A stretch of DNA of 64,000 nt from Candidatus Thalassarchaeum betae (GTDB taxonomy: Archaea; Thermoplasmatota; Poseidoniia; Poseidoniales; Thalassarchaeaceae). This document shows, in pieces, positions 3,201-14,100 of the stretch. Location: the NCBI GenBank assembly GCA_003193925.1, contig PSPG01000003.1, forward strand, positions 1-64,000, written 5' to 3'. The notes under the pieces are model-generated. The model worked only from the letters and a program-made list of their open reading frames with translations. It was not told the origin of the DNA and ran no database searches. Both the position numbers and the translations under genes were made by a program. The stretch's first letter is position 1. Each line of letters starts with the position of its first letter.

Positions 3201-3953
3201 ATGGATGATGAGGAACACTTCGAATTCGAAAAGATTGGGCGTTTAATTGGCCCACACCACTTCCTCTGGGTCTTCATCCTCTTCTTCCCCATCGCTCATT
3301 CCTACAGCGACCCTAACCACCTCCCCGGTTATTACCTGGGAGACCGCTGGATGCGTTGTTGGAATTTCCCCGACTTCATCTATGGGGGGGAATACTGTCA
3401 CAATCCCCAAACGGATACAGCTTTTCTCTTCGCTTCATTATTCGAGTCAGTCGTGATTGTATTGACCCTTGCTGTAATATTCAGAATCCTACGAGGTTCG
3501 TCGGAGCCCGAGCCGGAACCTGAGCCAGAGGAACCTGTGTGCGAGTTGGAGGGCTTCTGTGAGTTTGACTATCCTGAAGCATCTAACAACTACGAGGCCG
3601 AAGGGCGGTGCTGGCATTGTGGGAAGATAGAGTCGCCAGAATTTGTGGGACTGATGATGGTGGGTCAAGATCGCTTTCAGATTCTCAGGGACATGGAAGA
3701 CGACCTTGACGACGCAACTTACGATAGGCTCCAGCAGATGTTCCAAGCCATTCACGACAGCGAAATCGACTTCGCGAACAGTGGGGAAGGGACCCCCGAG
3801 TCCCGGCTTGAGGAGCTCAAGGCGATGGACGATTGCGAGCAGATACTCGCGGCGATGGCCCCCCATCTGGACGAGGCAACTTACGAGAAGTTCGGACGGG
3901 AGTTGGACGCGCACAGAGAACGGTTCCGGGCCTGGGAACCCAAAGCAAACTAG
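3201..3953 (+). CDS. Orphan membrane protein with 2 TM helices, an (EP)n linker, a Cys-rich putative Zn-binding segment and an acidic helical C-terminus
   Basis: ATG at 3201 (MDDEEH...), two hydrophobic stretches, EPEPEPEPEE, C-x5-C...CWHC. Confidence 0.65.
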   Translation: MDDEEHFEFEKIGRLIGPHHFLWVFILFFPIAHSYSDPNHLPGYYLGDRWMRCWNFPDFIYGGEYCHNPQTDTAFLFASLFESVVIVLTLAVIFRILRGSSEPEPEPEPEEPVCELEGFCEFDYPEASNNYEAEGRCWHCGKIESPEFVGLMMVGQDRFQILRDMEDDLDDATYDRLQQMFQAIHDSEIDFANSGEGTPESRLEELKAMDDCEQILAAMAPHLDEATYEKFGRELDAHRERFRAWEPKAN

Positions 3954-4028
3954 TCGGAAGCGAGGTCGGCGTCGATTACACCTGAGTCGGCTCGTTCCAC
4001 TCGAGCGAACCTTCTGGTGCCGTATCGT

Positions 4029-4115
4029 TCAGCCGTACACTAGGTACACGACGAGCGCCAGGGTTGCCATACAACCGTACAGGAGTCCCCACGGAAGGCG
4101 GTCCGTGTCGCTCAT
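4029..4115 (-). CDS. 28-aa single-TM micro-protein (MSDTDRLPWGLLYGCMATLALVVYLVYG)
   Basis: Read by hand; the ATG lies 3 nt after the upstream stop and is preceded by a GGTGA SD-like sequence; hydrophobic C-terminal half. Confidence 0.4.
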   Translation of the reverse strand: MSDTDRLPWGLLYGCMATLALVVYLVYG

Positions 4116-4118
4116 GCG

Positions 4119-4373
4119 TCACCACTTCCGCCTGTACCCGAGTTTCCGGCGCGTCATGTGGTAGGCGCAGACGTGCTCCCCGGGCTTCGCTGGATGCTTG
4201 CACCTGCCGCCGTCGCCGGTCATCGCCTCGCATCGGGGCTCCGCCTTCTTCTTCGCCTTCTTCGGCCCCTTCACGAACGCCTGAGTGCGGTCCCTGAGGT
4301 TCGCCTGCCGCCCCGACGTCCGGGGCCTGCGTGTTCGGGAGTGGCCCGGGGCCGTTCCACGGGCGCGGGCCAT
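4119..4373 (-). CDS. Small basic protein with a CCCH-type Zn finger (C-x-A-x-T-xx-G-x-R-C...C-xx-H)
   Basis: MARARG...KKAKKK...RCEAMTGDGGRCKHPAKPGEHVCAYH; TTAATT about 25 nt upstream of the ATG at 4373. Confidence 0.6.
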   Translation of the reverse strand: MARARGTAPGHSRTRRPRTSGRQANLRDRTQAFVKGPKKAKKKAEPRCEAMTGDGGRCKHPAKPGEHVCAYHMTRRKLGYRRKW

Positions 4374-4414
4374 GAAGGGCGGAGCACAGGGGAGGCAATT
4401 AACCCTACAAGTCG

Positions 4415-4690
4415 TCATTCATCGCGTGACATCATGTAACTGATGACCGATGCACTGAACCCGGAGCCAAACCCAATTCCCATGGAACCGACTAAGTCCA
4501 TCGGGGGCATTCCAAACCATCCATAGTAGTACGTGAAAAAAAAGACGAAACCCACTACTGCACCTATTCCAGCATGTCGAGCATATTTTTTCATGAACTT
4601 GGCAGGGGAGGGTCCCTCTATGATGTATGCGAAATATTCGCTACCCTCTGACTCGTATCTACGAGAGAGGGTTAGCAACAAATCGTTCAA
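4415..4690 (-). CDS. Small 2-TM hypothetical membrane protein (true start may be the ATG at 4594)
   Basis: MKKYARHAGIGAVVGFVFFFTYYYGW...GSMGIGFGSGFSASVISY, two Gly-rich hydrophobic helices. Confidence 0.5.
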   Translation of the reverse strand: MNDLLLTLSRRYESEGSEYFAYIIEGPSPAKFMKKYARHAGIGAVVGFVFFFTYYYGWFGMPPMDLVGSMGIGFGSGFSASVISYMMSRDE

Positions 4691-4711
4691 GTCCAGCGCC
4701 CCTTTCGGAAC

Positions 4712-4807
4712 ATGCCATTGGACTTGACAAGCAAGAGGTCCATCCTGATAATGCTCATTGTAGCATGGCTCGTCATCCAGTTCAGGAAGTGGATCTACAC
4801 AGTATAG
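4712..4807 (+). CDS. 31-aa single-TM micro-protein (MPLDLTSKRSILIMLIVAWLVIQFRKWIYTV)
   Basis: Read by hand; ATG..TAG with a hydrophobic helix flanked by basic residues. Confidence 0.4.
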   Translation: MPLDLTSKRSILIMLIVAWLVIQFRKWIYTV

Positions 4808-4940
4808 GGTAGGGAATCCACTACCGAGCAGTCAATCGGTAGGAATGCAACAGGATTGGTTGGTTGGGCTTACCGAGGCACCCATGAAACTAGCAATCAG
4901 TGGATAGGGTTCACTTAGGAACCCACACAACCACTGGTGG

Positions 4941-5684
4941 TTAGTTGGGTTCAGAATCCTCTTCTTGGTCGAATATACTCAGTTGGTTGACCCTTTCTCT
5001 GAGTTTCAATACCTCCAATGTCAACTCATCTCTTGACATTGATTGCAAGTCCTCGGTTAAGACGAGTTTTCCATTTTCCCAAAGCGTAGTGAAACCGCTT
5101 CCATCAGACCTTGTTGTGAACAAGCGACCGTGAAACATATTGTCCTTGAACTGGCCTTCGTAGCGATCACCGTCCGCGTATTCGTAGGCCCCCTGGCCGT
5201 GCTGCTTACCGTCCTTCCAGTGGCCGTCGTAGCGATTACCGGCAAGATCACCGCTCGCGTGTTCGTAGACCCCTTGGCCGTGCTTCTTACCGTCCTTCCA
5301 GTGGCCGTCGTAGCAATCGCCGTTCGGGTATTCGTAGACCCCTTGGTCGTTCCTCTTGTCGTCCTTGTACTGGCCGTCGTAGCGACCACCGGCATAATCA
5401 CCGCTCGCGTATTCGTAGACCCCTTGGCCGTGCTTCTTGCCGTCCTTCCACTGGCCCTCGAAGAGATTACCGTTCACGAATTCGAGGACCCCTTGGCCGT
5501 GCTGCTTGCCGTCCTTCCACTGGCCGTCGTAGCGAGCACCGTTCACGAATTCGTAGACCCCTTGGCCGTTCCTCTTGTCGTCCTTCCAGTGGCCGTCGTA
5601 GCGATCGCCGTTCACGAATTCGTAGACCCCTTGGCCGTGACGCTCCCCCAGCTCGTTGGTATCGCCAGTGTAGGTATTAGTCAC
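4941..5684 (-). CDS. MORN-repeat protein with a C-terminal coiled-coil segment
   Basis: About 8 repeats of YxGxWKDxKxHGQGVYEY/F (23 aa, two of 27 aa). Confidence 0.9.
   Translation of the reverse strand: MTNTYTGDTNELGERHGQGVYEFVNGDRYDGHWKDDKRNGQGVYEFVNGARYDGQWKDGKQHGQGVLEFVNGNLFEGQWKDGKKHGQGVYEYASGDYAGGRYDGQYKDDKRNDQGVYEYPNGDCYDGHWKDGKKHGQGVYEHASGDLAGNRYDGHWKDGKQHGQGAYEYADGDRYEGQFKDNMFHGRLFTTRSDGSGFTTLWENGKLVLTEDLQSMSRDELTLEVLKLRERVNQLSIFDQEEDSEPN
5160..5640. repeat. Intragenic tandem repeat (69-bp unit, some 81 bp) encoding the MORN repeats
   Basis: Recurring ttcgtagaccccttggccgt and ccgtccttccagtggccgtcgtagc blocks. Confidence 0.85.
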
Positions 5685-5750
5685 AAATTCGGATAAGGGT
5701 CATTGATTTCAATGATACTACATTCAAGTCTATAGACGAATGACCCTCGT

Positions 5751-5787
5751 GAGTCCGGAAGCTCAGGGGTTTAGATCCACGAGGATT
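5751..5787 (+). repeat. Dyad site copy 1: gaagctcagggg-tttaga-tccacgaggatt (5758-5787), preceded by gagtccg
   Basis: Direct match to 6170-6199 and inverted match to 8376-8412; arm-6 bp-arm architecture. Confidence 0.85.
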
Positions 5788-5941
5788 AGAACTGCCTGCC
5801 CGGATTTATCCCAGGGTCTATTGCCCCTCTCGAGTCCATCGTCGCAGGCCTCGCCCGCGAGCTCCGCGAGTGCCTGGCGCGAGGCGCGTCCGAGCGCGTC
5901 GGCGTGCTGCTGACTCTGCTCGAGGCCCTGGGGGGTCCGCC

Positions 5942-6079
5942 ATGAGGCTAGAAAATCCCCGTGTCCGCCCACCAAAGCACGTAGACTATGACCATGAGGG
6001 CAACGAACTCCTGCCAGCCGGGCTCCCAGTTACCGTCAGGGTCAAGCGGCACGATACCGACAGGAGGTGCCAGCCTTGA
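5942..6079 (+). CDS. 45-aa hypothetical micro-protein (MRLENPRVRPPKHVDYDHEGNELLPAGLPVTVRVKRHDTDRRCQP)
   Basis: ATGA overlap with an upstream start-less frame (...LLEALGGPP*) and TTGA overlap with a downstream mini-ORF preceded by GGAGGTG. Confidence 0.4.
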   Translation: MRLENPRVRPPKHVDYDHEGNELLPAGLPVTVRVKRHDTDRRCQP

Positions 6080-6169
6080 ACGCCTCGCCCCGCATGATGG
6101 AGGAATGCCCCGACTCGTGGCGCGGCTCAACTGCCTCGCCCTGGCTCGGGTACGCCTTCGACGTGCCAG

Positions 6170-6199
6170 GAAGCTCAGGGATTTAGATCCACGAGCGTC
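6170..6199 (+). repeat. Dyad site copy 2: gaagctcaggga-tttaga-tccacgagcgtc
   Basis: Same spacer as copy 1, 412 bp downstream; immediately precedes the bacterial-like tauE-dcyD segment. Confidence 0.85.
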
Positions 6200-6278
6200 C
6201 ACGGCCACATCGAAATTTCGGCTATCGGTGATCAAGGAATCCAAGATAGCCTTACATGAACACAAGCACGGGCGAGAG

Positions 6279-7028
6279 ATGGTGGATTGGATATTACTAC
6301 TGCTGATGGTGACATTTGCAGCCGCTATGGTTCAATCGGCGACGGGATTTGGCTTTGGGCTAATCTCCGTACCCGCCTTCCTGATCGTGATGAATTCGGT
6401 GGTCGCGATTCAACTGGTAATCATCATCACCTTGGGGATGTCCTGTGTTCATTGGCCGACATTAAGGGGCGTGGCGCCGGGGCACCTGCTGAAGTGGCTG
6501 TCGCTAGGCTGCACCTTTGGGTTTCCACTGGGTATCGTGGTCTATGCCAAGTTCGATATCGATACCATCAAAATGACGGTAGCGTTGTTAATCATCCTGA
6601 TATCCGTAATAAACGGTTGGCACCTGTTGAGCAAAGAAACAGGTCGTCGCCAGCCAGATCGACAACCCCATGGTCCCGGTACGCTGATGGGTGTCGGTGT
6701 TGCCTCCGGCCTGATGGCCAGCAGTCTGGCAATGCCTGGACCTGCGGTAATGCTCTATCTCTCTCGGACCGGACTCGATAAAAACGAGATTCGGGCCACC
6801 ATTTTGACATTCTTCCTGTTCTCCTATGGCGGGGCGCTGCTGTTACAGGCGACCTTGATCGGTATCGGGACCCAAACCTGGATTAACGCCTTGGTACTCA
6901 CGCCCGCAGCCCTTGGGGGGGTGGTTGTCGGTCACCTGCTATCGAAAAAGATTAATCAACAACTGTTCGAGGGGCTGGTGCTGTTGATATTGCTGCTAAC
7001 TGGCTTTTTCATGCTGGTCAGCCTCTAG
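6279..7028 (+). CDS. Sulfite exporter TauE/SafE family membrane protein
   Basis: AAMVQSATGFGFGL motif, SSLAMPGP in the second repeat, about 8 TM helices; ATG at 6279 preferred over the ORF-track start. Confidence 0.88.
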   Translation: MVDWILLLLMVTFAAAMVQSATGFGFGLISVPAFLIVMNSVVAIQLVIIITLGMSCVHWPTLRGVAPGHLLKWLSLGCTFGFPLGIVVYAKFDIDTIKMTVALLIILISVINGWHLLSKETGRRQPDRQPHGPGTLMGVGVASGLMASSLAMPGPAVMLYLSRTGLDKNEIRATILTFFLFSYGGALLLQATLIGIGTQTWINALVLTPAALGGVVVGHLLSKKINQQLFEGLVLLILLLTGFFMLVSL

Positions 7029-7070
7029 CCCCCCGCCAACAACCTAACGTAATACCAAAGAGAGAAAAAC

Positions 7071-8084
7071 ATGCTAACCGACCAGTATCCCCGAGTCGAC
7101 CTGTCACATACACCGACGCCCCTGGACAGTCTGAACAATCTGAGCGAGGAGCTTGACGGGCCGCGCATCTGGGCGAAACGGGACGACTGTACCGGTCTTG
7201 CCATGGGCGGAAATAAGGCTCGCCAGTTGGAGTTCTACCTAGGCGATGCCGTCGCCAAAGGGGCCGACACCATCCTGACCACGGGGGCCGTGCAGTCCAA
7301 TCATGTGCGTATGACCATCGCCGCGACGAGAAAGTTGGGTCTCGAAGTCGAGGTGCAACTGGAGGAGCGAGTCGCAGGCCGACGACAAGAGTACTATGAC
7401 TCCGGCAATCCCTTCTTGATGAAAATGATGGATGCCAAGATCCACCGCTACCCGATAGGTGAGGATGAAGAGGGCGCAGATCGAGCCCTCTATGATAGGG
7501 CTGAAGAAATTCGAAAGGAGGGTGGCAACCCCTACGTCATCCCCCTGTCGGGTAACCACGTGCCCTACGGCGCTCTTGGTTATGTGAAATGTGCCGAAGA
7601 GTTACTGGAACAGTTCCCGCAACTTTCCTTGCGCGTCGACGCCATCGTACTGGCAACCGGTAGTGGTATGACCCAAGCCGGACTACTGGCCGGCTTGAGA
7701 GCCCTTGGCAGCGGCATCCCCGTCTACGGTTTTTGTGTTCGGCGCGACCAAACCGCTCAGGCCGGCCGTGTGTTTGACAAAGCGCAGAAAGTTGCGGAGA
7801 TGATCGACTGCCAAGGCGTGGTCACTCAGGGTGACGTCTGGGTCGACGACCGCATGCTGGGTCCAGGTTATGGCCAGTTGAATGCGGAGCTGCTGGAGGC
7901 GATACGCCTGACTGCCCGATACGAAGGCATGTTGCTCGACCCCACCTACAGTGGAAAGTCGATGGCCGGACTGATTCATCTGGTGGCCAGCGGGCACTTT
8001 CGGCGCGACCAAACTGTGGTGTTCCTGCATACCGGCGGCACGCCGGCGCTTTTCGGTTACCCTGAAATCTTGGAACTACAGTAA
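7071..8084 (+). CDS. dcyD: D-cysteine desulfhydrase / ACC deaminase family PLP enzyme
   Basis: KRDDCTGLAMGGNKAR (PLP Lys), GAVQSNH, LLDPTYSGK and FLHTGG; AGAGAG purine-rich SD-like sequence upstream. Confidence 0.9.
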   Translation: MLTDQYPRVDLSHTPTPLDSLNNLSEELDGPRIWAKRDDCTGLAMGGNKARQLEFYLGDAVAKGADTILTTGAVQSNHVRMTIAATRKLGLEVEVQLEERVAGRRQEYYDSGNPFLMKMMDAKIHRYPIGEDEEGADRALYDRAEEIRKEGGNPYVIPLSGNHVPYGALGYVKCAEELLEQFPQLSLRVDAIVLATGSGMTQAGLLAGLRALGSGIPVYGFCVRRDQTAQAGRVFDKAQKVAEMIDCQGVVTQGDVWVDDRMLGPGYGQLNAELLEAIRLTARYEGMLLDPTYSGKSMAGLIHLVASGHFRRDQTVVFLHTGGTPALFGYPEILELQ

Positions 8085-8130
8085 ACCCCCGAAGGTGAAT
8101 ATAATGGGGGCCTCCGGCCTCCGAATAGCG

Positions 8131-8343
8131 ATGGACGAATGGGACAACGAAGGAGGCACGATTCCCACGCAGGACCGGGATCTCCCCGTCACCGGTAAAC
8201 GGTGCTGCTGCTGTTGCTGCTGCTGTTGCACGGCCATCGAGGGGGATAACCCGCGTCGGCTTCGACTGGTCATCAAGGGCGGTTGGCTGGTCGTGCTCGT
8301 CCTAGCTGCCATCGTCGGGGCCTATTGGCTGGGCGGGCAGTGA
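8131..8343 (+). CDS. 70-aa membrane-anchored protein with nine consecutive cysteines
   Basis: MDEWDNEGG...GKR-C9-TAIEG...GWLVVLVLAAIVGAYWLGG; AATATAAT about 26-33 nt upstream of the ATG; mixed TGC/TGT codons. Confidence 0.6.
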   Translation: MDEWDNEGGTIPTQDRDLPVTGKRCCCCCCCCCTAIEGDNPRRLRLVIKGGWLVVLVLAAIVGAYWLGGQ

Positions 8344-8375
8344 ACTCAGGGGGGGGACTGAGAGGTGAGATTCTT

Positions 8376-8412
8376 GACGCTCATGGATCCTAACCCCTGA
8401 GCTTCCGGACTC
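8376..8412 (-). repeat. Dyad site copy 3 (inverted): minus strand gagtccg-gaagctcagggg-ttagga-tccatgagcgtc
   Basis: Reverse complement matches 5751-5783 at 30/33 positions and shares the gagcgtc end with copy 2. Confidence 0.85.
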
Positions 8413-8576
8413 TCTGAGTCACAGAAGATTCACTCTGCATTAGACAGTCCCGCACTCGAGCACCGGTAAGACGTCGTCAGCGTAGCCATCGTTCATCCCG
8501 TAAGTCAGGTGGGCGTCGAGAGTGGGTTGGATCATTGTGAGTTCAGACGCACGGGTTGACTTCTTTAGGAATGTTT

Positions 8577-8592
8577 CTTAATAATTATTAAG
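8577..8592. promoter_or_regulatory. Perfect 16-bp AT-rich palindrome cttaataattattaag
   Basis: Self-complementary; lies at the island's right edge, about 20 bp beyond the nadE stop. Confidence 0.45.
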
Positions 8593-8612
8593 CGAAGCGT
8601 GCAAGCCTGATG

Positions 8613-10337
8613 TCACCTCTTCACGGCCAGCGGTTGGCGCCAGCCCTGACCGAAGGCGCGCTCGCTGACGCGAGGTGCGGGCGGCATCTGCCAGCGCTTG
8701 TGCTCACTGGTGTTGAGCTTGTCCTCGACCCACGCCACCGTAGCCTCGTCGTAGCCCTCAGCGGCGATGCTCTCGGGCGAGGCCATGTCTTCGATGAGAG
8801 CGTGTAGAATGGCGTCGAGCGTCGCGTAGGGGGGCAGGCTGTCCTGATCGACCTGGTCTGGGGCGAGTTCGGCTGAGGGTGCCTTAGTCAGGGTAGACTC
8901 GGTGAGTGGGGGCGGGTTGCCCATGGACTCCGCGTCCGTGTTGATGGCGCGGGCCAGATCGTAGACTTGGGTCTTGTAGAGGTCGCCGAGGGGCGCGTAT
9001 CCGCCGTTCATGTCGCCGTAGAGGGTACAGTAGCCGACCGCTAGCTCGGATTTGTTCCCCGTGGCCACCGCCATCGAGCCGCGCGCGTTAGCCGCGCCCA
9101 TCACCAGCATGCCCCGTATGCGCGCCTGCAGATTCTCCGCCGCCACCGGGTCGCCCGAATCGAGCTCCTCTGCCAGAGCCTCCTCCGCCTCGTTGTGAAG
9201 CTCGTTGATCGGTATCGAGAGCATCTCGATGCCAAGAGCCTCCGCGGTTGCCACCGCGTCGTCGATTGAGTGCTGGCTCGAGTGCCTGCTCGGCATCGAC
9301 AGGCCCAACACGTTTGCCGGCCCGACGGCGCGCGCGGCGATCACCGTACACACCGCCGAGTCTATGCCTCCGGACATCCCGAGCACGAGGCTCGTGATGC
9401 CCGATTTGCGGCAGTAGTCACCCAGTCCCGTAGTCACTGCGCTGAGTAGGTCCGTGCCGCTGTCCGGAGCGGCAGGCTCGTCGCCCGGTGCCACCATTTG
9501 GACAGCGCAGCGGCAGTCCGGGTCGCACTCGCCCTCGGGCCACGGCAGCCAACCGGCAGAACTCGGGTCCTCGAGGTCAACCAGCATCACGCCCATGCAC
9601 CAGCCGGGACCCTGCACCACAGTGCCATCGGGCCAAGCGACCAGCGAGCGGCCGTCGAAAATCAGGTCGTCGTTGCCGCCGACCTGGTTGCACAGCGCGA
9701 AGGGGTGGCCGAGCGTGGCTGCGGCGGCTCTGACCAGCGCGGCTCGCTCGCCCTCCTTGGCAAGGTGGTAGGGGCTCGCAGATAGGTTGACGGTAAGCCC
9801 GAGTGGGCCGCCGCCCTGCTGCCAGTCGGCCAGTTGCTCGATTGGGTCGGTGCGGTAGTCGTTAGGCACGTCGCCCACGTGCTGCCAAGCGTCCTCGCAG
9901 ATGGTCACTCCGAGGTGCATCCCGGATGCGCTTGCAAGGCCGGCATCGAGATTCGGCTCGAAGTAGCGGGCCTCGTCGAACACATCGTAGGTCGGCAGCA
10001 GCTGCTTGCGGCAGACGATTTCGCCGCTGCCGCCGGGCCCGACGCGCACCGCGCCGTTGGCCGGTTTGGTGCGCTCGCTGCCCGAGTCAATTGGCGTACC
10101 GACCAGAAGTGGGATAGGAGACTGGACTGCGCTCGCGGCAGCCTGACACCGCTCGACGAAGCCGTCCTCGAGCAGCAGGTCACGGGGCGGATACCCGCAT
10201 ATTGCGAGCTCGCAGGTGCACGCTATCGAAGCCCCGTTGCTGGCCGCCAGAGCGGCTGCGCGCTCTATCTCAGCGGCGTTGGATTCAATGTCCCCAATTG
10301 TGGGGTTGAGTTGCAGCAGCGCCACGATCTCGCCCAT
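8613..10337 (-). CDS. nadE: Glutamine-dependent NAD+ synthetase
   Basis: Nitrilase domain with the E-K-C triad (CEL, RKQLLP, ICED) plus a synthetase domain (SGGIDS, ENLQARIR, TGNKSE, PSAEL). Confidence 0.96.
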   Translation of the reverse strand: MGEIVALLQLNPTIGDIESNAAEIERAAALAASNGASIACTCELAICGYPPRDLLLEDGFVERCQAAASAVQSPIPLLVGTPIDSGSERTKPANGAVRVGPGGSGEIVCRKQLLPTYDVFDEARYFEPNLDAGLASASGMHLGVTICEDAWQHVGDVPNDYRTDPIEQLADWQQGGGPLGLTVNLSASPYHLAKEGERAALVRAAAATLGHPFALCNQVGGNDDLIFDGRSLVAWPDGTVVQGPGWCMGVMLVDLEDPSSAGWLPWPEGECDPDCRCAVQMVAPGDEPAAPDSGTDLLSAVTTGLGDYCRKSGITSLVLGMSGGIDSAVCTVIAARAVGPANVLGLSMPSRHSSQHSIDDAVATAEALGIEMLSIPINELHNEAEEALAEELDSGDPVAAENLQARIRGMLVMGAANARGSMAVATGNKSELAVGYCTLYGDMNGGYAPLGDLYKTQVYDLARAINTDAESMGNPPPLTESTLTKAPSAELAPDQVDQDSLPPYATLDAILHALIEDMASPESIAAEGYDEATVAWVEDKLNTSEHKRWQMPPAPRVSERAFGQGWRQPLAVKR

Positions 10338-10382
10338 CAGTACTCAGGGGGGAAGGGGGGCATTCAAGGTTGCCGGATGGTT

Positions 10383-11024
10383 TCAGTGGCACGCCGCATC
10401 GTACTTCTTCAGCCGCCAGTAGTTGTAGGGCCAGGGCGTCAGGAAGCCGACGATGAGCATCGGCGGGATGACCCACCATACCAGTTGGGCCCCTCCCATC
10501 AATACAAGGTCGACGCTATTCATCGCCGCTTCCATCGAGAGCATGGAAATCAATGACATTCCGATTGCCACCCGGAATGCCTCATTCAGTGCCATCTGAG
10601 CCGATAGGATGACGGTCTCAAGGGCGATTGAGGTCATGATTCCATTGAACATCGCCAGCCACATAATCATCATCGTGCTCCATCCCGAGTCAGTGAATAC
10701 AAACTGGAAAGCTGCTATGGTTCCGATATCGCCGATGGAGCAGCCGATCAGGCACCATTTGGTGTTGTTCGCAGACTTCCTCCAGACATCGCCGTCGCTC
10801 CAGTTAAAGTCGACGCCTGCGCCGTCGGCGGTGTAGCCAGCGCCGGTGATAGCAGCGACCATCGCGTCTCGGCCCACCCCTGAATGGGATACCACTGCCT
10901 GACCGATCTCGTGGGATACTTCAGCGCTGAGCACCCCGGTCAGCCCCTCAAGAGCGTTCCGGACATTGCCTGAGCATCCCGTGCAGGTCATCCCTCCGAC
11001 CGGGATTGTGACCGTCTCAGACAC
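10383..11024 (-). CDS. Heavy-metal-associated (CopZ-like) domain fused to a DUF4396-like membrane domain
   Basis: GMTCTGC HMA motif, then WCLIGCSIGD...SMISMLSME...PWPYNYW; GTG start at 11024. Confidence 0.8.
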   Translation of the reverse strand: MSETVTIPVGGMTCTGCSGNVRNALEGLTGVLSAEVSHEIGQAVVSHSGVGRDAMVAAITGAGYTADGAGVDFNWSDGDVWRKSANNTKWCLIGCSIGDIGTIAAFQFVFTDSGWSTMMIMWLAMFNGIMTSIALETVILSAQMALNEAFRVAIGMSLISMLSMEAAMNSVDLVLMGGAQLVWWVIPPMLIVGFLTPWPYNYWRLKKYDAACH

Positions 11025-11126
11025 GCCCGGCCGTCCCGACGGGCACTCTTGAATCCTACTAAACGACGAATTCGCCCTGTGGGCGAACGAGGCATCTTCA
11101 ATACAGCGCCGTGGGTCGCCGGCCCG

Positions 11127-14100
11127 ATGGGCGTACCCAAGCCAGCCGGCAGCCTCGACCCGGTCGCCCTTGAGACTGCCTTGATGGAGACATGGGGCGA
11201 AGAGGGGACCTTCGAGGCGACTATCGAGGCGCGCCGAGACGTCGCCAGTCCCTTCACCTTCCTCGAGGGACCGCCCACTGCCAACGGCCGGCCTGGCATC
11301 CACCACGTCATCTCGAGGCTGTTCAAGGACATGGTGTGCCGGTGGAAGACCATGGAGGGGCACGTCGTCGAGCGCATGGGGGGCTGGGACACCCACGGCC
11401 TTCCCGTCGAGATAGAGGTGCAGAAGAAACTCGATCTGATGTCCAACGAGGCCATCGAGGCCTATGGCATGGAGGCGTTCAACGAGAGGTGCAAGGAGAG
11501 CGTCTGGACCTACGAAAAGGCGTGGCGCGAGATGACCGAACGCATGGGCTTCTGGATAGACATGGACGAGCCCTACGTCACGCTGCACGACGAGTACATA
11601 GAATCCGCATGGTGGTCACTCAAGCGGATGTTCGACAAGGGCCTGCTGTTCCGCGGTCACAAGGTCCTGCCCTACTGCCCCCAGACGGGCACCAGCTACT
11701 CCACCCACGAGGTCTCCCTGGGCTACAAGGAGGTGTCCGAGCCGGCCGTCTACATCAAGTTCAGGCTCGTCGATGACGATGCCTCGGTGCTGGCGTGGAC
11801 GACCACGCCGTGGACCCTGCCGGGCAACGTGGGGCTGGCCGTCGGCCCCGATGTCACCTACTGCCGCATCCGCATCGCCGAGCCGCCCGCCGGTGCGTGG
11901 GACGGGCGCGGTGGAGCGGAGGTCGGAGAGGAGTTAATCCTCGCCAAGGACCTGCTCACAGACGTCCTGCGCCACCAGATCGAGGTCATCGGCGAGTTTC
12001 CGGGCTCGCAACTCATCGGCAAGGCCTATCACCCCCTTTTCCCCGACGCGGTCGAGCGAGGCGACTCCGAGAGCGCCTGGACAGTCGTCGCTGCCGACTT
12101 CGTGACCACCACTGACGGGACGGGCGTGGTCCATACCGCAGTGATGTACGGCGAGGAGGACTACAACCTCGGAATGGAGGTCGGCTTCCCGGCTCAGCAC
12201 ACCGTCGGCATCGACGGCGCCTTCGTCGCCGGGACCCATCACCTGCTCGACGGTCGCTACGTCAAGGACTGCGATTCCGACATCATCGACCACCTCGCCG
12301 ACGAGGGCCTGCTCTACCGCGAGCACACCTACACCCATGACTACCCGCACTGCTGGCGCACCGATCACCCGCTGCTGTACTACGCGATGGACAGCTGGTT
12401 CGTCCGCATGACCGCGGTCCGCGATGAGATACTCCAGTACAACTCTGAGGTCGAATGGGCCCCCGAGTGGACCGGTACCAAGCGCATGGGAGAGTGGCTC
12501 TCGAACATCAAGGACTGGGCAATCAGCCGCGAGCGCTACTGGGGCACCCCTATCCCCGTGTGGATCTGTCCGGACTGCGGCCACGAGCACTGCATCGGCA
12601 GCATCGAGGAGATGGTTTCGATGAAGACTGCGGACTCACCGGTGCCGCCCGAACTGCACCGACCTTACGTGGACGACGTCAAGCTGCACTGCCCCTCGAG
12701 CGGCTGCTCGGGCGAGATGGTGCGCGAGCCCTACGTCATGGACTGCTGGTTCGACTCTGGCTGCGCCTCGTTCGCCCAGTGGCACTACCCGTTCGAGAAC
12801 GAGGACAAGTTCGACGGCTCGTTCCCGGTCGACTACATCTGCGAGGCCGTCGACCAGACGCGAGGCTGGTTCTACTCGCTGCTCGCCGTCTCGACAGCGG
12901 TGTTCGACAGCACCTGCTACCACCGCTGCCTCTCACTTGGCCACATCCTAGACAAGGAAGGAAAGAAGATGAGCAAGTCGAAGGGCAACGTCGTCGACTC
13001 GTGGGACCACTTCAACAAGGAGGGCGCTGATTCGATTCGCTGGTACATGACCACGCAGAGCGCGCCGTGGTCTCCCACCAATTTCGACCCCAATGGGGTT
13101 CGACGGTCCTACGCCTCGATGTTCCTCACGCTGTGGAACATCTACCGCTTCCACGCCGACTACGCCGCGCTCGACGGGTTCGATCCCGATGACCAGTCGG
13201 GCTACGTGGCTGTCACAGAGCGCAGCCCGCTCGACCGCTGGGTACTGTCGAGGGCGAGTGCGATGGCCGACGCGTACCACGAGCACTTCGAGTCTTGGGA
13301 CTTCCACAAGGCCGGGCGCGAACTCGAGGACTTCGTCGTCAACGACCTCTCGAACTGGTATGTGCGGCGCTCGCGGCGTCGACTCTGGGACGAGGCGGAC
13401 AGCAGCGACAAGCGGGCCTGCCAGCACACTCTGCACGAGGCCTTGCTGCTGGTCTGCCGGCTGATGGCGCCGATTGCGCCGTTCATGCCTGACAGGATCC
13501 ATCGCGATCTCGTCGGCTCGTCTGTCCATCTGGCCGATTGGCCCGCCGGATCGTCGCTGCTCGAGCGTACCCTACCGCCGCGTGACTACGGACTGGAGCA
13601 GCAGATGGCGCTCGTTCGCACGCTCGCCGAGACCGGGCGTCGGATTCGCGTCGAGGGGGGGCGCCGGCAGAGGCTGCCGTGCCGCTACGGGTGGATCATC
13701 GGAGGGCCTGAGCTTGCCGGCTTCCACGACATCCTCGCAGAGGAGCTGAATGTGGAGAGCCTGATGACAGAGAAGGATCTGGACCGCTTCCAGAGGACTG
13801 CGCTCAAGCCGAACAGGAAGTCGCTGGGCGCCAAGTGCAGATCCGACCTGCCGGCTGTGCTGGCCAAGTTGGGCACCGCCGATCCCGACTCGCTCCTGCT
13901 CGAGATAGAGGCCGGCATCGCGGCGCTCGCAGGCTATCAGATCACGATGGACGACATCGAGGTGCGCCGAGTCGAGAAGGAGGGCTACTCAGCAGCCACT
14001 CTGTCCGACGAAGACTTCGGTGACGTATCCCTGGTGCTCGACATGAGCATCGACGATGAGCTGCAGTCGCGCGGGCTCGCGCGTGACGTCATACGCAGAA

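Follow-up and report, generated by a model that had tools for sequence, protein, structure and literature searches.

A 38-nucleotide intergenic repeat at gene-block boundaries in marine group IIb archaea

Archaeal dif sites, as set out in part of the text of PMC2958812, have 11-bp inverted arms with few mismatches around a 6-bp spacer and are present as a single copy near the terminus, and the pdif modules of Acinetobacter plasmids are bounded, according to portions of three accounts (PMC6449649, PMC13141974 and PMC12907356), by a 28-bp Xer site with an 11-6-11 layout. Here, we describe a short repeat that invites comparison with both. It was noticed in a stretch of 64,000 nucleotides from Candidatus Thalassarchaeum betae (positions 1 to 64,000 of PSPG01000003.1), the whole of which is called the window in the following and corresponds to contig C18:1-64000 of the metagenome-assembled genome (MAG) G000 (1.48 Mb in 23 contigs, 92% complete). 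Three copies, termed sites 1-3, lie there around a pair of bacterial-like genes, and the original prediction took them for tyrosine-recombinase sites of a gene-capture cassette system. Our data show that the repeat is new and lineage-restricted, occurring in certain lineages within marine group IIb archaea (Ca. Thalassarchaeum being a member of this family), and that it is intergenic and situated at the boundaries of gene blocks, with replicated cases in which one and the same flank meets different partners at a conserved 38-nt block. With a probability of about 0.5, we consider it a new dispersed repeat, similar to repetitive extragenic palindromes (REP) or MITEs (transposable elements of the miniature inverted-repeat type), that acts as a recombination seam. 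Throughout, L denotes fetched loci, G genomes, X metagenomes and C contigs, G000 being the source MAG.

A degenerate 26-nt pattern, with up to three mismatches allowed, matches the 64-kb window three times, precisely at sites 1-3, and gives no match in 100 dinucleotide-preserving shuffles of the window. The three sites are real and far beyond chance, and sequence inspection and pattern search agree on the positions originally given for them. Sites 1 and 2 form a direct repeat (27 nt, 96% identity, spacing 412 in a repeat search), sites 2 and 3 an inverted repeat of 31 nt (87%), and sites 1 and 3 the inverted repeat that had been noted, with 33 nt, 91% complementarity and 2596 nt between the arms. 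Site 2 is fused on its left side to the last approximately 30 codons of a small open reading frame (ORF), the stop codon of which (6184-6186) lies inside the repeat, and this truncated junction recurs in at least eight contigs; the junction at site 3 is found in an undecayed version in L142 (5018-5064).

When 111 unique full copies, taken from the MAG as well as from public contigs, are aligned, the conserved unit emerges as a block of 38 nt, with 1.6-2.0 bits per position and about 0 within about 10 nt on either side, which consists of 6-9-bp inverted termini around an asymmetric 26-nt centre. The outer 9 nt of the block pair at 7-9 of 9 positions in 95 of the 111 copies, i.e. terminal inverted repeats are present, whereas in 101 of them no more than 5-7 of 12 positions pair between the 12-nt arms proposed earlier, and the last 3-4 bases of the proposed right arm carry 0.6-1.4 bits versus 1.7-2.0 bits inside the block. 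The 12+6+12 dyads of the original prediction thus give way to the 38-nt block. Truncated copies break at many profile positions (ends at 32-46, starts at 8-23). The single-stranded core, taken together with a few flanking bases, does not fold better than shuffles (z of -1.3 and -0.7), and a rare copy with matched arms folds strongly (z of -9.4), such copies making up 5 of 112. Rfam 15 yielded no family above its gathering threshold in window positions 5600-8600 or in six loci with full copies. An origin of the block from a tRNA was considered and rejected: the best local alignment to the 43 tRNA genes of the MAG scores 20, which 36 of 100 shuffles equal.

For each known system with which we compared it, the repeat fails at least one tested defining feature. 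For an archaeal dif site, the host has the required Xer-family recombinase, but the real dyad here consists of 6-9 bp with a 26-nt spacer, and there are 12 copies on five contigs instead of a single one (the terminus being unplaced in the draft), so that the arm-6-bp-arm geometry of a tyrosine-recombinase site, as originally proposed, fails against what the consulted part of PMC2958812 describes. Similar in outline are the pdif modules, which, as far as the excerpted accounts go, are likewise modules of genes with a short, often inverted site at their boundaries, occur in varied contexts and orientations and likewise lack a recombinase of their own, the host Xer proteins being assumed to act on them. 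Unlike pdif, however, the block has 38 nt with a 26-nt centre in place of 11-6-11, its flanks occur on both faces of the centre, and it resides in archaeal chromosomal islands rather than on plasmids.

In the attC sites of integrons, the outer boxes are conserved and pair, and the centre is variable; here, it is the centre that is conserved (1.6-2.0 bits), whereas the outer arms are variable and show no pairing in cis. Integron arrays are also co-oriented, while neighbouring copies of the block are oriented at random and without polarity: 56 neighbouring pairs comprise 29 direct (15 --, 14 ++) and 27 inverted ones (15 +-, 12 -+). What the block does share with integron arrays and clusters of attC sites lacking integron-integrases (CALINs), in the main text of PMC9668308, are small accessory genes separated by a repeated element resembling a recombination site, clusters without a nearby integrase and acquisition of genes across domains. 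The same main text does not contain the terms 'Poseidoni', 'Thermoplasmat' or 'Marine Group II'.

The evidence for a seam comes from the architecture of the surrounding DNA. The stretch from 3500 to 9500 of the window splits into blocks, each of which is 90-99.8% identical to different contigs (table 1), with the mosaic of small gene blocks occupying 4.1-8.6 kb. Eleven of the 36 internal homology end-points in this stretch lie in, or no more than 13 nt from, the three sites, which occupy 2% of it, and further end-points lie at a core-less palindrome and at a 9-nt remnant of the repeat. Block homology ends at or inside all three sites (at 5741, 5784, 6186/6190 and 8382-8412), which bears out their predicted location at content boundaries. 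In L060, 99.8% identity extends over 4807-5784, and the MORN block is found there between two direct full copies. The module with the TauE gene, which lies between sites 2 and 3 in the window, occurs in two further contexts. L142 has a core-less junction on its TauE side and a full copy on the other, with a methyladenine glycosylase gene and a further full copy upstream; in L110, the module has the opposite orientation and is joined by a full copy directly to that glycosylase gene. This latter junction, from the glycosylase to the poly-Cys end, is a singleton seen in one contig.

Allelic differences and exchanged flanks point in the same direction. L056 and L139 are 99.9% and 99.5% identical on either side of a copy and differ by a 957-nt segment that begins at the block terminus and encodes a 210-aa membrane protein, the long form being present also in L107; as had been anticipated, copies thus lie at the ends of variable gene blocks. 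The 3' flank of an aldo-keto reductase (AKR) gene is connected via the block to six partner flanks in nine contigs, with three of these partners each occurring in at least two contigs, and the 3' flank of a short-chain dehydrogenase/reductase (SDR) gene (MAG C20:3780) has two replicated partners. Of the 25 largest flank clusters, nine occur with different partners on both faces of the asymmetric centre; no case was found in which two identical flanks enclose a flipped centre. Arrays of up to four copies in a span of 3 kb, with one or two small genes between copies, are present in L075, L092 and MAG C13, and the AKR block in L092 is bounded by copies on both sides.

Since short-read assemblers can join unrelated contigs across a repeat of 40-90 nt, the repeat could be real and its shuffling largely an artefact of assembly. 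That 108 of the 121 distinct junctions are seen in a single contig, that many copies lie at contig ends and that the L110 junction is a singleton would all fit this reading. The remaining 13 junctions, however, are replicated across assemblies, including three partners of the AKR flank and two of the SDR flank; the long allele of L056 and L107 as well as the junction shared by the window and L142 each occur in two assemblies, the repeat is present also in one record series with an older-looking accession prefix (ABEF), and its core is shorter than the largest k-mers in common assembly use. As an independent check, contigs from Logan of four metagenomes from four studies (X8, X10, X11 and X14) were compared with window positions 4800-9000. 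Summed contig depth spikes only in the bin of site 1 (5440 versus at most 171 elsewhere in X8, with the same pattern in X10, X11 and X14), and in the four metagenomes loose contig ends accumulate at 5741-5752 (left) and 5782-5789 (right). A joint 5787->4807 with 12 additional letters occurs in X10 and X14, i.e. the MORN block enclosed by two direct copies, as it is in L060; the core-less junction is present in X14 at 6189, and a contig of X11 (5756-6366) spans site 2. Together with L142 for site 3, these contigs show that all three junctions of the window recur outside the source assembly, which answers the objection that the assembly might be chimeric at this place. We therefore regard a largely artefactual mosaic as very improbable.

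The 412-bp circle that sites 1 and 2 had been predicted to release did not appear: contigs of the four metagenomes, which cannot show rare forms, contain neither a site 1/site 2 excision joint nor an inversion joint of site 1 or 2 with site 3. A single X8 contig has one opposite-strand joint (5716/5784), which may be a palindrome artefact.

The distribution of the repeat is patchy. A profile built from six full copies detects 12 copies in the MAG (E <= 1.2e-6) on five contigs (three each on C18 and C20, four on C13, one each on C19 and C6), 11 of which are less than 12 kb from a contig end, the exception being that on C19; the degenerate 26-nt pattern has eight matches in the MAG and a reversed control pattern none. 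Among species genomes of the family, the 26-mer (with up to three mismatches) is found in 6 of 226, representing 4 of 13 genera; in genomes of at least 80% completeness, it is present in 5 of 285 of the order, all belonging to this family, and absent from those of the other two families (0 of 2 and 0 of 162). A scan of about 185,000 species genomes with an exact 25-mer returned nine stretches from five MAGs, titled Poseidoniales, Ca. Thalassarchaeum betae or unclassified euryarchaeotes. Metagenome contigs have the exact core in 110 stretches, in which the profile finds 168 copies. The further copies to be sought in the genome and its relatives therefore exist, whereas viral contigs gave no match to the repeat core. 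Between genera, the core shows no differences, whereas nadE diverges by 14% in nucleotide sequence within the genus, and this contrast, taken with the patchy occurrence, fits mobile DNA and speaks for DNA that is mobile or was recently exchanged, rather than for an inherited host site. In two genomes of the same genus, G162 and G168, synteny with the window starts only at 8608 or 8744, and the repeat is absent there. In G168, approximately 12350-12750 of contig C56 (L030), downstream of nadE, reads as N.

Gene positions for the 142 near-full unique copies were taken from a codon-usage gene caller, and gene ends within 150 nt were tallied. None of the 142 copies is inside a called gene. On their left are 27 gene 3' ends and 18 5' ends, on their right 32 and 23, respectively, with the remainder having no called gene within 150 nt; many copies follow a stop codon by 10-45 nt. 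A rule by which copies always lie antisense after a gene, apparent in C13 and C20, vanished in this tally. Most often, copies adjoin a cyclophilin gene (13 loci) or AKR (8 loci), and neighbouring genes in general are accessory or housekeeping ones (AKR, SDR, GNAT, TauE, MFS, DUF899, nitrilase, glycosylase, MORN, GST, cyclophilin, TFIIB and S10). The cyclophilin gene adjoins a tRNA-Ala(TGC) gene, and some copies are located directly 3' of this tRNA gene or next to an approximately 17-nt duplicate of its 3' end (L042 at about 4340-4420, L070 at 7746, L073 at 211 and L102 at 9131).

With their strictly intergenic position, frequent proximity to stop codons and strong sequence conservation, the copies could also be a cis-acting host element under selection, such as a protein-binding site, terminator or operator, which would mark gene ends and coincide with block boundaries only incidentally. 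We consider this improbable, because no more than 6 of the 226 genomes of the family contain the repeat, and its positions are not orthologous (the nadE neighbourhoods of G162 and G168 being without it), because its orientation to genes is unbiased (3' ends 27 left and 32 right, 5' ends 18 and 23), because no Rfam family reaches threshold and because allele differences begin exactly at the block. Nor is there, among the 142 copies tallied, any fixed distance to gene starts or promoters, i.e. the mark of the operator that had originally been offered as an alternative is lacking.

An important question is which enzyme, if any, acts on the block. The window encodes no recombinase, as had been stated, and a search of the 92%-complete MAG for the Phage_integrase family (Pfam) met no IntI integrase and a single tyrosine recombinase, a XerA-like match on another contig (C4:23551-24054, 126.8 bits) away from the arrays. 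Copies had been expected beside a XerA or integrase gene, and none adjoins any array. Five other repeat-bearing genomes have one strong XerA-like match each, but a Xer-family gene in the host is no demonstration of its action on the block. In G199, a second, weak integrase match lies on the same contig as three copies and 12 kb away from them, at the inner border of a low-GC island. This 449-aa tyrosine recombinase (L245, i.e. G199:C15, 15025-16374) is encoded in full length in only two of the 226 genomes of the family, while 38 others match its last 23-35 codons alone; in the MAG, the match (C4:35979-36080) lies over tRNA-Arg(TCG), which indicates that the 3' end of the integrase gene overlaps its tRNA attachment site. 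As an island integrase that targets tRNA-Arg, is present in one of six repeat-bearing genomes and is not co-distributed with the repeat, it was rejected as the block enzyme. Rejected as well were the AKR as a hidden recombinase (a common neighbour, but an ordinary AKR) and a T5orf172 nuclease-like gene beside copies in L092 and L149, which has no match in the MAG.

Nevertheless, a dedicated site-specific cassette system deserves to be weighed, in which the 38-nt block would be the site of a recombinase encoded in trans (the host's XerA-like protein or an unrecognised enzyme) and blocks would be excised as circles and re-inserted at any copy, like integron cassettes or dif modules. Very strong conservation of the sequence without a correspondingly strong fold would be in line with this, as would the blocks bounded by copies on both sides (MORN in L060, X10 and X14; AKR in L092), the arrays in L075, L092 and C13, the occurrence of the same block in different contexts and the capture of bacterial genes. 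A XerA-like gene is present in 6 of 6 repeat-bearing genomes, which, with only these six examined for it, has no bearing on an association either way. Termini of 6-9 bp with a 26-nt spacer, however, match no known core site; the 12+6+12 dyad pairs too poorly, copies have no polarity and carry flanks on both faces, truncated copies have no common break point, no array has an adjoining integrase and that of G199 has another target. Absent polarity, flanks on both faces, scattered truncation points and the 26-nt spacer argue against a directional tyrosine-recombinase site and an integron-like order, and these four agree with a REP/MITE-like repeat that serves as a recombination seam. We consider general or template-switch recombination at the repeat more likely than a dedicated directional tyrosine-recombinase reaction.

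How well does the repeat fit the REP/MITE type? REP and the bacterial interspersed mosaic elements (BIMEs) made of them, with their REP-associated tyrosine transposases (RAYT), as well as MITEs are short, extragenic, non-coding repeats with inverted termini, which occur in both orientations and are hot spots of rearrangement. The block is likewise extragenic (142 of 142 copies), has inverted termini and occurs in either orientation. It differs from REP/RAYT systems in that no Y1 transposase was found in the MAG and the core alone folds weakly, and from REP/BIMEs and MITEs in its low copy number (12 per genome); it is also smaller than usual MITEs. Unlike the ends of MITEs or insertion sequences (IS), it comes without target-site duplications, and no related transposase-bearing element was found in the MAG or among 40 ORFs neighbouring metagenome copies, i.e. 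both marks of ordinary IS ends, another alternative raised at the outset, are missing. Some IS families make no target-site duplications. A further parallel is provided by the intergenic mosaic elements (dRS3 repeats) and minimal mobile elements of Neisseria, where short, conserved repeats bracket variable intergenic segments, and gene blocks are exchanged between conserved flanks via natural transformation, along with a phage integrase that targets the repeat. The likeness lies in repeats bracketing exchanged blocks; domain of life and sequence are different, and nothing comparable to the neisserial integrase was identified here.

Taken together, we infer that the mosaic is generated by recombination between copies of the repeat. 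Such recombination would swap, invert, delete or insert the blocks lying between copies, which could recombine in either relative orientation, within one genome or between genomes; accessory genes, including the bacterial tauE-dcyD pair, would be shuffled in this way, and the repeat itself may have been spread by an enzyme acting in trans. The original idea of trans-acted sites that shuffle modules thus stands as far as the breakpoints and the recurrence of the module in other contexts and orientation are concerned, but not with respect to directional-site geometry and polarity.

Several observations weigh against a REP/MITE-like seam. No match to Y1_Tnp (PF01797, RAYT type), Resolvase (PF00239), IS110 (PF02371) or DDE_Tnp_1 (PF01609) was obtained in the 92%-complete MAG, where the TnpB zinc ribbon (PF07282) appears only below threshold, although absence from an incomplete MAG is no proof of absence. 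Moreover, 172 neighbouring or island ORFs (24 + 18 near MAG copies, 40 near metagenome copies and 90 of small contigs or island ends) include no recombinase or transposase when compared with Pfam. Target-site duplications do not exceed the shuffled null for five boundary definitions and k = 2-8 in 109 copies, and among the loci compared there is no pair of alleles with identical flanks that differ by presence or absence of the block; from these two results, mobility of the block itself is something we infer rather than observe. An empty-site allele of the C20 SDR junction was sought in the 226 family genomes, which gave only distant homologues of the gene and no orthologous empty site. With only 13 of 121 distinct junctions seen in at least two contigs and with short reads prone to mis-joining at repeats, part of the junction diversity may be chimeric. 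Furthermore, metagenome loci were fetched by an exact match to 22 nt of the core, so that conservation of this part of the block, though not of its 5' third, was forced by sampling. Finally, near-perfect conservation of 38 nt without a stable fold would also fit a sequence-specific recombinase site. Strong conservation without a fold, blocks bounded on both sides and the lack of a transposase stay unexplained by a REP/MITE-like seam, and it is these three points that keep a dedicated system alive as an unlikely, though far from negligible, alternative.

The block is also part of something larger, as it usually sits at the apex of two variable arms of about 25 nt that belong to a wider family of intergenic palindromes. 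These flanking arms of approximately 20-25 nt constitute a limited, diverged family, with members found on either side as reverse complements. Pairing in cis of the two arms around one copy was considered and rejected (7.97 versus 8.23 +/- 0.33 pairs of 25 for randomly paired arms, with at least 17 of 25 reached in only 5 of 112 copies), and so were inverted ends specific for a cassette (7.94 for the arms of one inter-copy segment versus 7.78 at random, of 25; n = 33). The same flank and arm can lead into different junction forms, i.e. one of 8 nt, one with a 10-nt centre and that with the 26-nt centre. In L100, L060 and L107, the 8-nt junction CCTCGTGG is followed by another arm, with the block being absent, and a 10-nt centre between the same inverted termini is found in L074, L104 and in the MAG at C9:1252 and C1:54881. 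Arms shared between core-less, 10-nt and 26-nt forms thus make the block the long-centre member of this wider palindrome family.

Table 1. Copies of the repeat, gene blocks and other features in the window.
Feature	Position	Strand	Remarks
Site 1	5742..5788	+	full repeat copy; nhmmer profile positions 3-49, E 9e-16
Site 1, conserved 38-nt block	5746-5783	+	CTCGTGAGTCCGGAAGCTCAGGGGTTTAGATCCACGAG; terminal inverted hexamers 5746-5751 and 5778-5783
Site 2	6169..6199	+	3' part of repeat only, profile positions 18-48
Site 3	8375..8421	-	degenerate full copy; 3 mismatches in 26-nt core, left terminus decayed
Two small blocks, 4115-4374 and 4414-4646	4115..4646		each adjoins full repeat copies in other contigs
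Core-less palindrome of the arm family	4636..4680		seam after block 4414-4646
Repeat remnant, 9 nt	4795..4803		far end of MORN block; full copy there in L060
MORN-repeat gene block	4807..5741	-	gene 4941-5684 (Pfam)
Block between sites 1 and 2	5789..6168		short, GC-rich, without intact gene
Bracketed module	6200..8374	+	between sites 2 and 3; block homology to L142, L110
TauE/SafE-family exporter (predicted)	6228-7028	+	Pfam
Pyridoxal phosphate (PLP) enzyme, D-cysteine desulfhydrase/1-aminocyclopropane-1-carboxylate (ACC) deaminase type (predicted)	7071-8084	+	Pfam
Poly-Cys protein, 82 aa, predicted membrane protein	8095-8343	+	nine consecutive Cys
Module-end inverted repeat, 10 bp	6190-6199 and 8376-8385
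Sulfatase-like gene remnant (last ~30 codons)	8422..8612	-	between site 3 and nadE
Mosaic blocks	4115-4374; 4414-4646; 4807-5784 (MORN); 5741-5951		homology to other contigs
Mosaic blocks	6186/6190-8412/8524 (TauE, PLP enzyme, poly-Cys protein); 8024-8396		homology to other contigs

As its sequence relationships with marine Proteobacteria show, the tauE-dcyD pair in the bracketed module is of bacterial origin, whereas the poly-Cys gene is not bacterial. The closest relatives of the PLP enzyme (78-84% aa identity) are found in marine Gammaproteobacteria (Amphritea, Motiliproteus, and MAGs of Nitrincolaceae type and of Osedax symbionts) and in a Kiloniella MAG, which agrees with the bacterial-like character ascribed to the pair from the start. 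In those bacteria, too, tauE precedes dcyD, with nucleotide homology of 70-77% only over 6246/6263-8075, i.e. the two genes. One Poseidoniales MAG, UBA58, has a relative of the PLP enzyme at 80%; its tauE-dcyD pair lies, without the repeat, between two genes that are adjacent in MAG contig C6. In a codon model, cassette genes score about 0.13-0.18 per residue versus 0.28 for core genes. The poly-Cys protein has no Pfam match and recurs in at least four other contigs with 7-9 Cys.

As to other blocks, window positions 5741-5951 are common to L075 and L101 at 90-91%, and the full copies that adjoin the two small blocks at 4115..4646 elsewhere were seen in L045, L078, L079, L093 and L130 and in L087 and L142. 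The MORN gene contains eight tandem repeats of 69/81 nt (5095-5679), which cause metagenome contigs to have skip joints. Another interspersed repeat, about 100 nt in length and rich in GACTCA/TGAGTC motifs, is located at approximately 367-524 of the window and occurs in many fetched contigs (flank cluster 31) and in MAG contigs C17 and C18. In C13 of the MAG (L009), a 4.3-kb block between two copies (7336-11671) contains the genes for a family B DNA polymerase of archaeal type (7750-10137) and for an SRAP peptidase (10962-11579); at E <= 1e-20, the 20 other genomes of the genus have no homologue of this polymerase, and one 67% relative is present in another Poseidoniales MAG. A truncated copy in C6 (59526-59705) starts at the stop codon of aspS, where the contig ends, and C20:1-6385 consists of 6.4 kb of cassette-like genes; in UBA58, aspS is contiguous with a region matching C20 from 6385 onwards (L156). 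The end of C6 and the start of C20 are thus likely to outline one island. Contigs C2, C15 and C22 of the MAG, with a GC content of 0.45-0.46 versus about 0.61 in the rest and with housekeeping genes for a tRNA synthetase, urocanase, histidine ammonia-lyase and an AAA ATPase, have probably been mis-binned from another organism.

Marine group II archaea, which are still uncultured, belong to the most abundant archaea of the plankton. A literature search met no description of the present element, with the archaeal integron paper (PMC9668308) covered by its main text. As a tentative and, on balance, unlikely proposition, these archaea may own a gene-cassette system with a site architecture unrelated to that of integrons or dif modules, in which a recombinase or nuclease that has escaped recognition, or else XerA working in a non-canonical way, would cut and rejoin a 38-nt junction. 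If this is true, small blocks, including genes from co-occurring bacteria, would undergo capture, inversion and transfer between genera. A dedicated enzyme, if there is one, would make this a new kind of site-specific system; without one, the repeat would be a clear archaeal case of a dispersed repeat that structures genomic islands. Which enzyme moves the blocks becomes, with this repeat, a testable question. The repeat provides a concrete sequence marker for the seams of accessory blocks, which lets cassettes be catalogued in metagenomes, and it would allow recent cross-domain transfers such as that of tauE-dcyD to be dated and placed.

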